Shown: piece by piece, positions 36,801 to 42,800 of the stretch | How the letters are laid out: each line of letters starts with the position of its first letter | How positions within the stretch are numbered: position 1 is the first letter of the stretch | From: an uncultured Planctomycetota bacterium | Lineage (GTDB): Bacteria; Planctomycetota; Planctomycetia; Isosphaerales; Isosphaeraceae | Assembly: GCA_963737655.1 (NCBI GenBank) | Contig: CAVTTN010000002.1 | Location: 7,520,001 to 7,584,000 of the forward strand | DNA length: 64,000 nucleotides | Reading direction: 5' to 3' | Position numbers: made by a program

Positions 36801-39800
36801 GTCGGCCGAGAGCGCCACGGCGAGCACCAGATCGGGCGCGCTGGCGGCGAGGAATCGGCGAAGTTCCTCGATGTCGAGCCGGCCGTCGGCGTCCGCGTCG
36901 GCCTTCTGGAACCGCGCCGGTTCGATCCCGAACTCGCTGCGGGCCAATCGATTATCGCCGGCCACGGCGCCGTCGGAAGCACCTCGATCGTACCGTTTCA
37001 TCAAGAGCCGGACGGGCCGGAGCGTGGCATCCTCGCGGTCGATCTCCAGGACCGGAGGCACCGCCGAGAACCGGGCCCGGCGGGTCGAGGGGTCTTCGGC
37101 TCCCATCATGGTCGGGTCGGCGAACGGCTCAAGCTCCGCCTCGTCCACCAACTCGTCGTCATCGAGGTCCAGCTTGAGGAGACCGGCGCCGTCCTTCATT
37201 TCCGCCGGGATCAGGACTCCGTCCTTGTCCCCGTCGAGTTGATCGAACAGGGCGTCCGTCTTGCCTCCCGAGACCTTGCCGACCTCCACGCGGAAGGGAC
37301 CGAGGGCCGTCCGCAGTGCCTCCGCCAGCTCGTCGAGCGAGACCTTGCCGTCCTTCGGATGCATGTCGAGCTCGGTCCGGGGCAGGGCGGTGGCGGAGCC
37401 GTTGGCGACCCGGACGATGGTGGCGAGTGCCGACCGATCCGCCTCCTCTTTCGTGACCGTCCCGTCGCCGTCGCGATCGAGATAGGCGTGCAAAGTCTTC
37501 ACCGAGTCCATCCAGGCCGACCGGAACGGACGATCGCCGAGCGTGACCTCCAGCCGGAGGAAGATGGGCCGGTTGTCGCCCAGGAAGATCAGGTCCTGGA
37601 CCGAATCGCCCGAGGCGGGTCGCGCCATCGCGGGCGGGGACTTCGGCGTTGGCTTGTCCGCCGCAAATGCCGGGCAGGTCAGCAGTAGCGTCAGGAATGC
37701 GATGCCGCGTTTCATCCCAGGACCTCCTGGATCGCCGTGGCCTTGGGATCGACGATGCGGATCGGGCGGCCCACGTCCGAGATGTTCTGCTTGCCCGGGT
37801 CGATCCCCAGGACGCGACAGACCGTGGCCAGGAAGTCGGGTACCGTCACCGGCCGATCCTTGACCGCCATGCCGTCGGGCCCGGTATTGCCGATCGCCTG
37901 GCCCCCCCGGATTCCCCCGCCCGCCAGGACCGTGGACCACGCCGTGGGGAAGTGGTCGCGGCCGGCATCCTTGTTGATCTTCGGGGTCCGCCCGAACTCT
38001 CCCATCCACACAATCAGGGTCGAATCGAGGAGACCTCGCGACCGAAGGTCGCTCATGAGGGTTCCCCAGGCCGGGTCGAGCGTCCCGCACAGGGCCTTCA
38101 CGGCGTCGAAGTTCTTCTGGTGGGAGTCCCAGCCGAATACGGTCGAGCCCTGGGCGGCCGAGAGCGTGACCTCGATGAACGGAACGCCTCGCTCGACCAG
38201 CCTCCGGGCGAGCAAACACCCCTGACCAAAAGAGTTGCGTCCGTACGCATCGCGGACCGCCGCCGGTTCCTCCTCCAGCTCGAACGCCTTCGCGGCCGGC
38301 GACCTCATCATCTTCACGGCCCGGAGGTAGGCGTCCTGATGGCTCAAGGGGGCGGCCCCGGGATGGGTCGCGAGGAAGTCTTTTGAGAGCGAAGACATCA
38401 GGTTCAGCCGGGAGTCCGCGCGGTTCGCCGTAACTCCCGGAGGCGGGTTGAGGTCCTCCACCCTCAATGAAAGCTTCGAACCCTCCGAATCTCCCAGGAC
38501 CCCCCGTTCTCCCACGATCAAGGGCGCATATTGCGGACCCAGGAACCCCGAGCTGAACGCAGCCGGGTTGAACGCCCGGAACGGCGAAACGCTGACGAAT
38601 CCGGGAAGCTCGGCCGATTCGTCGGCAAACTCCTTCGCCACCAGAGAGCCAAATGTCGGGTAGTGGATCGGTCCGGTCGGCTGATAGCCGGTCCGAAGGT
38701 TGAACGTGGCCCGGCCATGGTCACCTTCCTTCGTGCTCATCGATCGGACGATCGCCAGATCTTTCATCTGGGCCGCCAGTTGCGGCAAGTGTTCCCCGAT
38801 CGAGATCCCCGGAACCGCCGTGGCCAGGGGCTGGAATGGCCCATTATGGGCATGGCCCGGCTTGGGGTCGAACGTGTCGATCTGGCTCGGCCCGCCCGAC
38901 ATCCACAGGAGGATGCATGACTTCCGCCGTTTCGGGTCGGCCGCCGCATGGGCCGCCAGGGTCTCAATCCACCCCGAAGCCGAGGCACCGATCGCCCCGG
39001 CCGAGGCCAGTCGCAGCCATTGCCGACGAGTCAGGCGGTCCGATCGGTCCATGACAACCTCGTAGAGTGCATGAAGTGCACCGTCTGGGGAAGAGACGTA
39101 GAATTCCGGGGGCTCGTTGGAAGTGATCAATGATTATGCTTAAATTCCGGGCCATTCAGCAGGGCCCAGAACACGTCCGCCAGCGCCGCCGAAAGTTCGG
39201 TCGGCGTTCCAGCCTTCTCGACGTACGCACTCAGGAAACGCAGCTCGTCCGGGGAAGGCCGGCGAGTCAGGGCGGCGAGGTAAAGGGCCTCGATCCGACC
39301 TGGCGTGTCAAGATAGGGTGCCTCGGCGATCGCCGCGAGCGTGTCGCCCGTCTCCGGGTTAGTCGCCCCGGCGACGATCTGCCCGTTCATGAGCGTAAGG
39401 GCCTGGAGAATCGACGTTTGCGCCTCGGTTGGCTTCTCGTCGCGGTTGGCGAAGAGTTCCAGGAATCGCCCCCTGGCATCGCCTCCATAGCTCATCCCGC
39501 CCTCGCCGCTTCGATAGCCCGTGGCCTGGGCCAGACTCTCGAAAAGCTGGCCGGGCGAGAGGCCCCGGACGGTCATGGCCGAGAACAGGGCCGGGGGAGA
39601 TGGGTCGGGCCGATCAACCCGGCTGGTCAGGCCGTAGGCGCGGGTTGCGGTGATGGCGCGGATCAGGTATTTCAGGTCATAATCATGGGCGACGAACTGG
39701 CGAGCCAGGGAATCCAGAAGCTCCGGGTGGGCGGCCTCGTTATCGGCGCCCATGTCATCGACGGGATCGACCAGACCCACGCCGAAAAACCTGGCCCAGA

Positions 39801-42800
39801 CTCGGTTTACGGCGGCTCGGGCGAAATACGGATTGGTCGGCGACGTGATCCACTCGGCCAGAACGTCCCGCCCCTCCACCCGCGGCCGCCATAGGGGCTC
39901 GATGCCATCAAGATGGGTGGCCTGCACAATTCGCGTGGTTCCAGGGATCGTCAATTCTTTCCGACCGGAGACCTCGCGAATCGCGCCGGGATTGTCGTCG
40001 GTCCCTTGCCTCTGAACCCCCGCGAAAAACGCCGCAAACCCCCAGAACTCCTCACGTTTCCACTTCGCGAACGGATGGTCGTGGCATTGGGCGCACTCGA
40101 GGCGGATGCCGAGGAAGACGCGCGAGGCCCCGGCGGCGAGGTTCTCCGGCTTCCCTTCCTTGGCGGTGTAGAACGCGACGGGAGTCGCCTCGATCCGGCG
40201 ATCAGTTCCGGAAGTTATTCGCCCACCGAGTTTTGCGGTCAGGACTTCCTTGACGATGTCGTCGTAACCGGCCTCCTCGATCACCTTCTTTCGCAACCAG
40301 GCTTCGAACGGCCACGAGGCGAAGCGAGCCTGGCCATCGGTGTCGGCCTCGGGCAAGAGCAACTGCCGCCAGAGTTCGACCGCGCGAGCCGAGTAGGCCG
40401 GACTCGCGAGGAGCCGCTCGACGAGGATCCGCCGCTTATCGGGGCTGGGGTCGTCGAGGAAATCGCGGGCCTGGGCCGCCGTGGGGATCTTGCCCACGAG
40501 ATCCAGGCTCACGCGTCGGAGATACTCCGCATCATCGGCCGGGCCAACCGGCCTGAGCTTGGATTCCGCCCATTTTGCCGAGAGCATGCGGTCAATCAGG
40601 GCCGTGAGTTCGGCCGAGTCGCGGGACGTTCGGGCCGGGTCGACGCCCTTCTTCCGGGCATCGGCCGACCGGGCCGGTTTCGGGGCGATCAAGACGGCCA
40701 GGATGGCGGCAACGAGCCCGAGGCGACGTGTTCGCATGACCGCTTTCCTCCCTCGAAAATCCTGTCACCGTAACGATTTCCGACCTGAGATTCCCCCCAG
40801 GCCGGGCACGTCCCAGAGCTTGGCCGTGCCGTCGAGCGACCCGGTCGCGATCGTCCATCCATCCGATGAACAGGCCAATCCGAAGACCGCGCGTGAATGA
40901 CCCACCAATCTTGCCCGTTCCCCGCCGGTTTCCAGGTCGAACAAGGTAACGCAACCATCCCCACGGCCCGCCACCGCCAGGATTCTCCCATCTGCCGCAA
41001 TTCCCAGGGCCCGGACCGCGGCCGGAAAGCCGCCGAGGGTCAGCTTCGCTCGCCCCTCAGCCAGGTTCCAGAGCCGGGCCGTCGCATCGTGCCCTCCGCT
41101 GGCCAGGATGCGTCCGTCCGGCGAGAAGGCGAGCGTCAGGACCGAACCCGCATGACCCACGAGATCCGCAACCTCAGTCCTGGAATCGACTTCGAAAACC
41201 TTAATTTCACCAAAGGCATCCTTGCGTCCATCCCGGCCCCCGCCACCGGTTGCTATCAGCCGCCCATCAGGGCTAAAAGCCACAGCATGGAGCGAACCGC
41301 GAAACTGGTGGAGATGGGCGATTTCGGTTCGCTGGGCAATCTTCCAGAGCGACAGGACCCGATCTTCGCCGGCCGAGGCGAGGAGAGTCCCATCGGGCGA
41401 AAAAGCAAGGCTCGTCGCCCCTTCGGTCGCCGCAAGTTCCCCGTCGGGAGCGCCATCGGCGACTTTCCAGAGCCGGATCGTTCGATCCCAACTGCCAGAA
41501 GCCAAAGACTTTCCGTCGGGTGAAAAGACGAGCGAGGAGACCCCCCGCGCGTGCCCAACGAGCGTGGCGCGGACTTTTCGGGTCGCCAGGTCCCACAGGA
41601 CGATGTCGCCCGGGGCGTCATAGGCCACGGCCCCGACGGCAAGAATGGTGCCATCCGGCGAAAATGCGGTTGGGCCGAGGCATCCGAGGTCGCCCTTGAG
41701 GCTCGCCCGAGGGGATTCCCGCCGAGCACCCAGGTTCCAGAGCCGAACCGTTCCATCGCGACTCGCCGAGGCGAGGGTCCGGCCATCCGGGGCGAACGCC
41801 ACCGAGGCCACGAGGTCGCCGTGCCCCTTGAGGGTGGCGAGCTTCCGGCCCGAAGCCACCTCCCAGAGAAGCAAATCGCCGCAAGCCTGTCCTGCGACAA
41901 GGAATCGGCCGTTTGGACTGTATGCCGAGCACGTTGCGTCGGCCGCTTTCCACCCGTTCTTCTCAACGAATGTCCCAGGGTCCCATAGATGGATATGTCC
42001 GTCCCCGCCGCATGAGGCGATCGACCGGCCGTCGGGCGAGTAGGAGACGCTGGCGATGGCTCCGGCCCGGCTTACGAACGAACCGAGCCGCTCGCCGGTC
42101 TGGAGCCGGTAGAGTACCACGGAACCTGCCTCGTTCTCCGGCCGATCTCCTGTGGCAATCGCCAGTTGCGTCGAGTCTGGTGAAAATGCGACGGCGGCGA
42201 CGGTCGTGGATTGCCGGAAAGATTCTCGCGGTCGACCAGGCGTCGTCCAGTCCCAGACGAACACCTCGCCATCTGCCCCGCCCGAAGCGAGCAGGCGCCC
42301 ATCCGAACTGAATGCGAGTGATCGGACTGAACCCCTGTGTCGTTCAAGGTTTGCAACGACCTGTCCATCATCCGACCGGACGAGCCGCACCGTCCCGCTT
42401 TCGCCTCCGACGGCCAGGGTCGAGCCGTCGGGAGAAACCGCCATGACCGGCCCTCCCACGGCGAGCGGCTTGCCGAGGACCAGGCCGGTCGATGGATCGT
42501 AAATCGTGATGGAATCGCACTTTCCGGCGACGAAGACGCGGCGACCGTCCGACGAGAAGGCGACCGAACGGGCCTCGTTGGGAAAGTTCAGGATCGAGGC
42601 GGCCGAGAGGATCGGCGAGGCCGGCTCCCAGAGCCGGACTGTCCCATCATAACCTGCGGATGCAAGTTGGCGTGCCCCGGCGCGAAGCTCAGCGACGCAA
42701 CACCTTCGCCGTGGCCGGTTAACGTGGTTCGTTCGCGGCCGGTCCGTACGTCCCAGAGCTTGATCGACGCGTCCAGGCTCCCGCTGGCCAGGGTCTCGCC

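Follow-up and report, generated by a model that had tools for sequence, protein, structure and literature searches.

The pairing of PSCyt/PSD1 genes with DUF1501 genes has been known in planctomycete bacteria for about 20 years. The domain names PSCyt1, PSCyt2, PSD1 and DUF1501 were reportedly first introduced by Studholme et al. 2004. The passages on this module in Kamneva et al. 2012 (PMC3542564) report the linkage of DUF1501 and PSD1, describe a "conserved genetic module" of Planctomycetes, Verrucomicrobia and Lentisphaerae, and include electron transport among the proposals. The function of the module is given as unknown both there and in the corresponding passages of He 2017 (PMC5615132). 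A related arrangement, the two-gene operon DUF1800-DUF1501 of Proteobacteria and other phyla, is mentioned by Goncalves et al. 2016 (PMC5122149).

We analysed a 64,000-nucleotide stretch (the window) from the genome of an uncultured planctomycete. Two minus-strand genes, the partner gene at 39127..40737 (536 aa; Pfam PSCyt2 E 6.4e-47, PSD1 E 5.8e-40) and the DUF1501 gene that follows it, are real. From its domains, their locus is identified as a compact representative of the PSCyt/PSD1 and DUF1501 module known from planctomycetes. It shares with the module of Kamneva 2012 the Pfam families, the adjacency, the twin-arginine motif on DUF1501 and the presence of multiple paralogous copies per genome. 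However, the present copy is minimal, with PSCyt2 and PSD1 only and with neither PSCyt1 nor a carbohydrate-binding domain, and in this orthogroup a conserved third gene is added. The product of this gene (35985..37715, minus strand) is a secreted protein of 576 aa that carries a signal peptide, contains eight EF-hand loops of the DxDxDG type and matches Pfam EF-hand families with E values down to 1.6e-31. The ATG of the gene overlaps the stop codon of DUF1501 (ATGA), and 9 of 10 related loci have kept the gene immediately downstream of DUF1501, with identities of 47-52%. As judged from this conservation, the module in this orthogroup is a three-gene operon encoding a CxxCH helical partner, a DUF1501 protein with a Tat signal and a secreted multi-EF-hand calcium-binding protein. 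The three-gene unit with its translationally coupled 8-loop protein is new: the EF-hand gene has no mention in the passages of Kamneva 2012 (PMC3542564) that describe the module. It was also absent from the account of this locus in the genome-wide survey's note.

The ORF at 37712-39130 of the minus strand matches the DUF1501 profile over its full length (E 1.8e-111, positions 1-390 of 390). The start is better placed at the ATG at 39052, which yields a protein of 446 aa (37712..39052) and brings LTRRQWL to residues 7-13, the place it has in the orthologues. The twin-arginine motif T8-R9-R10-Q11-W12-L13 is encoded at 39014..39031 (minus strand). Both arginines are invariant across 47 orthologues, and the RR motif is present in 35 of the 41 intact DUF1501 paralogues and in 62 of 67 DUF1800-linked relatives. 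The genome encodes TatC. The AF2 model of DUF1501 (pLDDT 83.5, pTM 0.83) has 177 Foldseek matches in PDB at E<=0.001, headed by sulfamidase 4miv (1.6e-7) and steroid sulfatase 1p49 (2.3e-7), with TM 0.35-0.40 for these top matches. In VIA comparisons, the best structural matches are Xac NPP (Z 20.0, with 247 residues superposed at rmsd 3.0) and the alkaline phosphatase PafA (Z 18.9), and sulfatases score 18-19. Profile comparison by hhalign relates DUF1501 to the sulfatases of the same genome (Prob 94.8, E 5.2e-8); for its NPP-family proteins the same comparison is not significant (P 0.033). DUF1501 is thus a predicted Tat-exported protein with an alkaline-phosphatase/sulfatase-superfamily fold. 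In these points, and in the lack of a formylglycine motif (no CxPxR in any of the 41 intact paralogues), our results agree with the survey.

The active site departs from that of the known enzymes. DUF1501 has in common with the formylglycine-dependent (S1) sulfatases the fold, the end of the signature (...TG) and the C-terminal subdomain. However, it has His in place of the Cys/Ser of CxPxR and Ala in place of Arg; Ser-Gly stands for the two Asp that follow strand 1, and Glu-Phe for the Asp-His/Asn metal pair. Residues 209-287 form an additional helical insert (about 80 residues), and the superposition covers only about 250 of the 446 residues. With the NPPs and PafA it shares a His/Asp-rich site, but it has no Thr nucleophile at the aligned position. 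The residue mapping onto sulfatases is based on profile alignment and predicted secondary structure rather than on coordinates. In this mapping H112 (codon 38717..38719, minus strand), the first residue of the helix after strand 99-105 of the model, aligns with the Cys of CxPxR, and is predicted to lie where sulfatases have their formylglycine and the alkaline-phosphatase superfamily its nucleophile. The presence of an invariant His at this position is a new observation. T121-G122 aligns in hhalign with the TG of the sulfatase signature, at +9/+10 from the catalytic position, and by this alignment is only that TG. The survey had listed eight conserved residues; D62, H112, D309, H311 and H367 are indeed invariant in all 41 intact paralogues, while T121 (37/41), D366 (36/41) and S56 (32/41) are not. 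E352, R355 and R365, which are also present in 41/41, were missing from that list. Across PSD1-linked and DUF1800-linked proteins together, H112, D309, H311, E352, G354, R355, G364 and H367 are identical in 108 of 108 sequences. The conserved set H112, D309, H311, E352, R355, D366 and H367 is predicted to form the active site.

The partner starts with a signal peptide, after which PSCyt2 (DUF1549) spans residues 48-242 and PSD1 (DUF1553) begins at residue 290. Its AF2 model (pLDDT 86.8, pTM 0.86) is almost all-helical. Foldseek found no PDB match to it at E<=0.001, and in VIA the best score was Z 6.5 over 65 residues, with none of 48,161 chains at Z 8. The segment C215-A-Q-C218-H219-D-H221 (40075..40095, minus strand) contains the c-type haem attachment motif CxxCH and a second His; all 35 orthologues and paralogues compared have these two Cys and two His. 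Both the missing counterpart among solved folds and the invariant CxxCHxH had been claimed by the survey and are confirmed. The CxxCH is a putative haem site. A CcsA-type cytochrome c assembly gene was found in this genome.

The PSD1 and DUF1800 families could be linked by hhalign (Prob 93.6, P 2.1e-7). The score of 65 compares with 18-24 for reversed and 25-35 for block-shuffled profiles, and a second run gave Prob 88.7 and E 2.5e-6 over 210 columns. When the halves were compared separately, the C-terminal ones gave P 6.6e-8, and no significant similarity was seen between PSCyt2 and the N-terminal half of DUF1800 (P 0.033). The Pfam DUF1800 model does not match the partner in the window. We conclude from the profiles that PSD1 and the C-terminal half of DUF1800 are homologous, which is a new finding. 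Also new is the frequency of the pairing: DUF1501 is located directly downstream of DUF1800, on the same strand, in 75 of 80 DUF1800 loci from many phyla. It was not found in five, of which four end less than 300 nt after the DUF1800 ORF and one (L026) keeps about 1.4 kb. The two types of pairs thus share the order partner-DUF1501, a Tat-type DUF1501 with the same core residues, and homologous C-terminal regions of the partners. On the other hand, DUF1800 contains no CxxCH at the aligned place. Its DUF1501 has invariant D56 (GGNDG) and invariant S111 beside H112 (67/67), whereas in the PSD1-linked proteins the motif is GGPSQ...D62 and residue 111 varies (N 16, D 10, A 6 of 41).

The 65 six-frame DUF1501 matches in the genome merge into 53 loci. 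One of these, a sub-cut-off 105-nt scrap within a sulfatase gene, was left out, so that the total is about 52 loci rather than the 57 genes counted by the survey; 11 of them are frame-broken, with more than one frame piece. PSD1 is located directly upstream, on the same strand and within less than 2 kb, in 34 of the 52. Three are linked in other orders: in two the order is reversed, and one belongs to a four-gene form that includes a PPC-domain protein. One more lies after the genome's single DUF1800 gene, and 14 have neither neighbour. The survey had given 35 with a PSCyt/PSD1 neighbour, 1 with DUF1800 and 21 with neither. Conversely, 36 of 38 PSD1 loci have a DUF1501 no more than 3 kb away. 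The orphan genes group into a separate, well-conserved subfamily, the 13 intact ones being as conserved as the paired genes. Therefore an adjacent partner gene is not universal, and, judging by this conservation, DUF1501 can evidently exist without one. In 20 intact pairs the divergence of partner and DUF1501 is strongly correlated (r = 0.938; none of 2000 permutations reach this value, maximum 0.609), as is expected for any operon duplicated as a unit. Homologous partners, gene order, the DUF1501 core and this co-divergence support the earlier reading of haem and haem-less pairs as one kind of system.

The genes upstream of the module are on the same strand. A WD40 beta-propeller protein of 564 aa (40765..42459; Pfam WD40 E 7.5e-94) is encoded by a gene that ends 28 nt upstream of the partner gene. 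It is preceded by a gene for a 717-aa protein in which a BlaR1-type M56 peptidase sensor is joined to a WD40 propeller (42588..44741; Pfam Peptidase_M56 E 4.9e-32, and WD40) and by a BlaI-type (Penicillinase_R) repressor gene (44738..45160, 140 aa, Pfam E 2.7e-28). A promoter-like site near the latter, at 45233-45206, is a consensus match only (10/12). Homologues of the WD40 gene upstream of the module, and the BlaR1-type M56-WD40 gene, are each found in 3 of 10 related loci. At one paralogous locus the module is neighboured by a WD40 protein with a PSCyt1 domain.

The best overall explanation, in our opinion with slightly better than even chances, is that the known module produces a periplasmic metalloenzyme in which the partner and DUF1501 act as one, with chemistry of a non-covalent-intermediate kind. 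DUF1501 would be the catalytic subunit, holding a transition metal loaded before Tat export and acting without the covalent Ser, Thr or formylglycine intermediate of its relatives. The partner would serve as a substrate-handling scaffold. Its haem may be an accessory electron relay or a structural cofactor and would not be central to the chemistry, since the DUF1800 type keeps the DUF1501 core without the haem motif. The roughly 50 paralogues probably cover a range of substrates, possibly anionic glycan-derived compounds. A possible analogy to the gene pair is the PlcH-PlcR system of Pseudomonas aeruginosa, where a Tat-exported enzyme of the alkaline-phosphatase superfamily, the phospholipase PlcH, shares its operon and its export with a small partner, PlcR. 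This partner has been described as calcium-binding. Its gene is downstream of the enzyme gene, whereas the DUF1501 partner is upstream; PlcR has no haem, and the families are different.

The survey had proposed a metal-dependent ester hydrolase or transferase that forms a tight heterodimer. If this were a classical enzyme of the sulfatase/phosphatase type, S56 or T121 would act as its nucleophile, with the haem as an add-on. The superfamily fold (Z 18-20 against NPPs, PafA and sulfatases), the relationship to sulfatases at the sequence level and the conserved Asp and His residues are consistent with this, and D56 and S111 of the DUF1800-linked branch resemble the canonical arrangement of Asp and Ser nucleophile. 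However, classical covalent ester hydrolysis is not supported, because H112 holds the formylglycine position and T121-G122 of the PSD1-linked proteins aligns with the structural TG of the signature. Moreover, among the paralogues S56 is not invariant and position 111 is not conserved, the Asp-Asp and Asp-His/Asn pairs are replaced, and the haem has no role in hydrolysis. We consider this proposal unlikely, and unsupported as it was written. A periplasmic oxidoreductase is similarly improbable. In such an enzyme DUF1501 would contain a redox metal (Fe, Cu or Mn), and the haem of the partner, together with PSCyt1 domains in the long paralogues, would carry electrons to or from the respiratory chain, in line with the electron transport suggested in the module passages of Kamneva 2012 (PMC3542564). 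The invariant CxxCHxH, a His in the nucleophile's place within a core of three invariant His and carboxylates, the fit between cofactor insertion in the cytoplasm and Tat export, and PSCyt1 in the neighbouring WD40 protein of the paralogous locus all point in this direction. On the other hand, the haem seems dispensable for the shared chemistry, because DUF1800-linked pairs without CxxCH keep the DUF1501 core, and the haem site is itself only putative. To our knowledge, no redox enzyme is known in the alkaline-phosphatase superfamily.

One more possibility, of equally low probability, is that no stable enzyme complex is formed. The partner would then help in export or maturation, as PlcR does for PlcH, or bind something on its own, or the two proteins would act in successive steps of a pathway. 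This would agree with the conserved orphan loci, with the difference in export routes (the partner has a Sec-type signal, DUF1501 a Tat signal) and with the absence of partner-DUF1501 fusions among the best 150 family representatives. However, the order of partner and DUF1501 is very tight across phyla, the pairs strongly co-diverge, and the survey reports confident predictions of the complex. Finally, DUF1501 might be a non-enzymatic ligand-binding or sensor module and the locus might act in signalling, as the position of the operon after a BlaI/BlaR1-type sensor pair and fusions to ECF sigma factors could suggest. This is very improbable, given the invariant polar core at the catalytic site of an enzyme fold and the very large size of the family (61,281 representative clusters at E<=0.001); the sigma factor fusions may be gene-calling artefacts.

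Several minor observations concern the wider DUF1501 family. In 3 of the best 150 family representatives, an ECF sigma factor is fused to the N-terminus of DUF1501. A Laminin_G_3 domain at the C-terminus of one representative and the position of the second DUF1501 of the window inside a sugar-acid operon are hints of a link to carbohydrates.

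The partner gene (window 39127-40737, minus strand) encodes a protein of 536 aa that carries both profiles in the expected order, PSCyt2/DUF1549 (E 6.4e-47, 160.6 bits at a cut-off of 29.8) and PSD1/DUF1553 (E 5.8e-40, 137.7 bits at a cut-off of 28.5). The PSD1 profile matches in two stretches, and the middle of this domain is therefore divergent. The N-terminus is a signal peptide, MRTRRLGLVAAILAVLIAPKPARSA. The adjoining ORF (37712-39130, minus strand) matches the PF07394 (DUF1501) profile along all of its 390 positions (E 1.8e-111, 373.5 bits at a cut-off of 27). Its most likely start is the ATG at 39052, which gives a protein of 446 aa with the N-terminus MDRSDRLTRRQWLRL and a twin-arginine signal as in the orthologues. 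This candidate Tat-type N-terminus, LTRRQWLRLASAGAIGASA, has a [ST]-R-R-x-F-L-like motif followed by a hydrophobic stretch, and the protein is predicted to be exported. R9 and R10 show no variation among 47 orthologues. The RR motif is retained in 35 of 41 paralogues, and the copies without it mostly have disrupted N-termini. A TatC gene was detected in the genome. No NCBIfam family was observed for either protein, and their closest database relatives bear Isosphaeraceae or Planctomycetota names.

The third gene (35985-37715, minus strand) encodes a secreted protein of 576 aa that starts with a signal peptide and contains eight EF-hand loops of the DxDxDG type. Its ATG (37715) overlaps the stop codon of the DUF1501 gene (ATGA). 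Ten related regions were compared, of which nine come from five further genomes of the Isosphaeraceae family and the tenth is the in-genome paralogue. Nine of the ten keep the PSD1, DUF1501 and EF-hand genes in this order, and thus this orthogroup is a three-gene unit. The only close in-genome homologue of the EF-hand protein is found at the paralogous locus. The two-subunit picture drawn in the genome-wide survey's note omits the third gene of the unit.

The genome (7.63 Mb, three contigs, completeness score 87.7%) yields 65 six-frame profile matches for DUF1501 and 43 for PSD1, merged into 53 and 38 loci, respectively. One of the 53 was discarded as a sub-cut-off 105-nt cross-match within a sulfatase gene, leaving 52. 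Eleven of these are split over reading frames, as are several PSD1 genes; given the three contigs and the completeness score, insertion/deletion errors in the assembly seem a likelier cause than mass pseudogenisation. At 34 DUF1501 loci the gene immediately upstream, at most 2 kb away and in the same orientation, is a PSD1 gene, and 36 of the 38 PSD1 loci are within 3 kb of a DUF1501. The only DUF1800 gene of the genome precedes one DUF1501. In a Pfam scan of the neighbours of 16 unpaired loci, the gene order is reversed at two, and one is a four-gene form that includes a PPC-domain protein, whereas 14 DUF1501 loci are true orphans amid unrelated genes. The survey's counts (57 genes, 35 within two genes of a PSCyt/PSD1 gene, one beside DUF1800, 21 with neither) are thus close but overstated. 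In one reversed locus (L110, contig C2 of this genome, G000, 3203244-3212458) the order is DUF1501, PSCyt2/PSD1, PSCyt1-WD40 protein; in the other (L103, same contig, 758428-767677) a gene for a leucine-rich-repeat protein stands between the DUF1501 and PSD1 genes. Classical sulfatase (PF00884) loci number approximately 12 in the whole genome, compared to approximately 52 DUF1501 loci.

The pairing as such is already published, and the window locus is an unremarkable example of a module known from work of 2004-2012. In their treatment of the module, Kamneva et al. 2012 (PMC3542564) noted DUF1501 together with PSCyt1/PSCyt2/PSD1, the twin-arginine motif and the many paralogues, and left the function open; the corresponding section of He et al. 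2017 (PMC5615132) does the same for Verrucomicrobia. DUF1800-DUF1501 operons are mentioned by Goncalves et al. 2016 (PMC5122149), in the part dealing with these genes. Among the papers listed for DUF1501, DUF1800, PSD1/DUF1553 and PSCyt2/DUF1549, no title or abstract reports a tested function, and none of them contains both DUF1800 and a PSD1/DUF1549/DUF1553 term.

The AF2 model of DUF1501, built from the 40-sequence alignment A3, has pLDDT 83.5 and pTM 0.83. In Foldseek it matches 177 PDB chains at E<=0.001, with sulfamidase and steroid sulfatase as the best hits (TM 0.35-0.40). The VIA search gives Z 20.0 for Xac NPP (rmsd 3.0 over 247 residues), 18.9 for PafA and 18-19 for sulfatases, with 490 of 1000 chains at Z>=8; the model thus has the core alpha/beta fold of the alkaline-phosphatase superfamily. 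About 250 of the 446 residues superpose, and residues 209-287 of the model form an additional helical insert. Judged by sequence, the protein is closer to sulfatases than to NPP-family proteins: phmmer matches a GalNAc-6-sulfatase at E 1.5e-4, and hhalign aligns DUF1501 with nine sulfatases of the same genome (Prob 94.8, E 5.2e-8, 296 columns), whereas with six of its NPP-family proteins no significant alignment results (Prob 1.6, P 0.033).

Twelve positions are invariant in the 41 intact DUF1501 paralogues: D62, H112, G122, W308, D309, H311, E352, G354, R355, G364, R365 and H367. T121 (37/41), D366 (36/41) and S56 (32/41) are not fully invariant. In the alignment with sulfatases, several functional positions of the latter are replaced. 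The Asp-Asp pair after strand 1 corresponds to S52-G53, and the S1 ligands are not found there; the Asp-His/Asn metal pair corresponds to E352-F353. The C/S-x-P-x-R signature of S1 formylglycine sulfatases is absent from DUF1501, where the aligned residues are H112-G-R-A115-T...T121-G122, with H112 in place of the Cys and A115 in place of the Arg. In the sulfatases themselves C-x-[PA]-x-R occurs in five of the nine aligned proteins (three C-x-P-S-R and two C-T-A-G-R). The TG ending the signature (+9/+10) is T121-G122 in DUF1501, at equal spacing.

H112 is the first residue of a predicted helix following strand 99-105 of the model. This would correspond to the canonical nucleophile position of the superfamily, at the N-terminal end of the helix that comes behind its second core strand. 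No Ser, Thr or formylglycine nucleophile is observed at this position in any of 108 sequences (41 paralogues of this genome and 67 DUF1800-linked proteins): all have H112. One possibility was that T121 serves as the nucleophile. However, T121-G122 is aligned with the TG at +9/+10 of the sulfatase signature and H112 occupies the nucleophile place, which rules T121 out as a candidate. To our knowledge, all characterised relatives have a Ser, Thr or formylglycine nucleophile; from this mapping, which is based on the profile alignment and predicted secondary structure and not on coordinates, we infer that DUF1501 would lack it.

In the partner, C215, C218, H219 and H221 are present in all 35 orthologues and paralogues, the first three forming a candidate CxxCH haem attachment motif. 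A CcsA-type cytochrome c assembly gene was detected in the genome. The partner model (pLDDT 86.8, pTM 0.86) is nearly all-helical, with a small beta element at 241-272. Foldseek against PDB returned no chains at E<=0.001, and no VIA match among 48,161 chains scored Z>=8, the top one having Z 6.5 across 65 residues. No solved cytochrome is among the structural matches from either program. Phmmer against PDB sequences found nothing below E 1, and a protein atlas search with the partner's own families excluded reached a top score of 0.79, below the lead level. Weak matches to phycobilisome linkers recur in both Foldseek and VIA, at model residues 112-335 and 391-536. The VIA scores (3ohw, Z 6.4, 108/127 residues, model 393-536; 2l3w, Z 5.9; 8hfq_n, Z 5.3, model 112-327) are below the level counted meaningful for helical proteins. 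A likeness of DUF1800 proteins to ApcE is remarked upon, in a passage on these proteins, in a 2026 paper (PMC12981691).

The survey's note had also held that the haem-bearing pairs and the haem-less DUF1800 pairs are one kind of enzyme. As regards one kind of system, this is borne out by the linkage, the partners and the DUF1501 core. Among 80 DUF1800 loci from Planctomycetota, Verrucomicrobiota, Burkholderiales, Paenibacillus, Chitinophaga, Acidobacteriota and others, 75 have a DUF1501 directly downstream on the same strand. No DUF1501 is found in the remaining five; four of these end less than 300 nt past the DUF1800 ORF, and one (locus L026) keeps about 1.4 kb. The PF08811 (DUF1800) profile does not match the window's partner even at E<=10. 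However, when the partner alignment is set profile against profile with one of diverse DUF1800 sequences, the result is Prob 93.6, P 2.1e-7 and score 65, as opposed to 18-24 for reversed profiles, 25-35 for ten block-shuffled ones and 14-18 for unrelated families. A second hhalign run (Prob 88.7, E 2.5e-6, 210 columns) aligns PSD1 301-534 with DUF1800 251-450, a span that includes the C-terminal PEF..NH / PEYQL ends. The C-terminal halves alone give P 6.6e-8, whereas no significant similarity is seen between the N-terminal halves, PSCyt2 and DUF1800 up to residue 245 (P 0.033), and thus the collinear alignment over the full length, obtained at mact 0.1, is not claimed. CxxCH is absent from DUF1800 at the aligned place.

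On the DUF1501 side, H112, D309, H311, E352, G354, R355, G364 and H367 are common to all 108 sequences. The two types differ elsewhere: GGPSQxDTFDPKP of the PSD1-type proteins is replaced by GGNDGxNTVVPR in the DUF1800-linked ones, where D56 is found in 67/67 and position 62 is V or I; S111 is likewise present in 67/67 of the latter and variable in the own-genome paralogues, and T365 stands in place of R365. With homologous partners, the same gene order and a shared DUF1501 core, the PSD1 and DUF1800 pairs are therefore two branches of one system. This suggests that the haem is not essential to the chemistry common to both types.

The tight heterodimer predicted with confidence in the survey's note is plausible as a putative partner-DUF1501 binding. 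Over 20 intact pairs, the distances between DUF1501 paralogues correlate with those between their partners at r = 0.938, a value reached in none of 2000 permutations (maximum 0.609), although such co-divergence is expected of any operon duplicated as a unit. No partner-DUF1501 fusion turned up in the 150 best representatives of the family, these being a small sample of its more than 60,000 clusters. The 13 intact orphan DUF1501 proteins form a conserved subfamily with its own signature and are not decaying copies. No relaxed conservation hinting at a lost interface was found in them, the sole paired-only conserved column being F292. In eight of the 41 paralogues, mostly orphans, a conserved Cys just precedes the twin arginines (C-[DGQ]-G-x-[ST]-R-R); examples are located on contig C2 at 3207244-3208698, 7064054-7065391 and 99712-101187, and in the window at 45324-46790. 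Among four of the family representatives (P0406, P0480, P0502, P0424), three carry an ECF sigma factor (Sigma70_r2 + r4_2) joined to the N-terminal side of DUF1501 and one has a C-terminal Laminin_G_3 domain; the sigma-DUF1501 fusions may be gene-calling artefacts.

Overall, the survey's observation is real, if largely known already, and its interpretation stands in part: the pairs belong to one system, but the classical nucleophile is absent. A reading that we favour slightly is a periplasmic metalloenzyme system. Catalysis would fall to the Tat-exported DUF1501, at a His/Asp/Glu site that is non-classical and lacks a nucleophile, and the PSD1/DUF1800-type helical protein would be its dedicated partner, the haem being accessory. 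A wider proposal is speculative and rather improbable: the partners and DUF1501 might constitute an unrecognised and very large class of two-subunit extracytoplasmic metalloenzymes that exchanged the covalent nucleophile for a metal centre rich in His, which in the planctomycete branch would be connected to a c-type haem. This could allow chemistry new to the superfamily, e.g. cutting complex glycans at sulfate, phosphate or ether links with redox assistance, with a calcium-binding third subunit in this lineage. DUF1501 with a PSCyt/PSD1 or DUF1800 partner is among the largest uncharacterised families of exported bacterial proteins (61,281 representative clusters at E<=0.001, and 7,597 at the stricter E<=1e-30), and solving its function would matter. 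Three results narrow the hypotheses: the homology of the partner families, one invariant His/Asp/Glu/Arg core shared by both branches, and the absence of the classical nucleophile. With three genes, for proteins of 536, 446 and 576 aa, the window copy is a minimal version and suits co-expression and analysis of metal and haem.

Directly upstream of the module (40765-45160, minus strand) are genes for a BlaI-type repressor, a fusion of a BlaR1 M56 peptidase with WD40, and a separate WD40 protein. This set is found in three of the ten related regions. A promoter-like site (45233-45206) matches the consensus upstream of the BlaI-type gene. The terminator scan found five candidates, with 6.4 expected, and is therefore no guide to where operons end. 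No sequencing runs, RNA or DNA, are listed for window 35985-42459. A series of genes on one strand (45324-52644, minus strand) ends with a second, orphan DUF1501 (45324-46790, E 8.5e-93); its other products are a LarA-N-like protein, an amidohydrolase_2, a xylose-isomerase-like TIM barrel, a short-chain dehydrogenase and a tagaturonate epimerase (UxaE). This context hints at a link to sugar acids.
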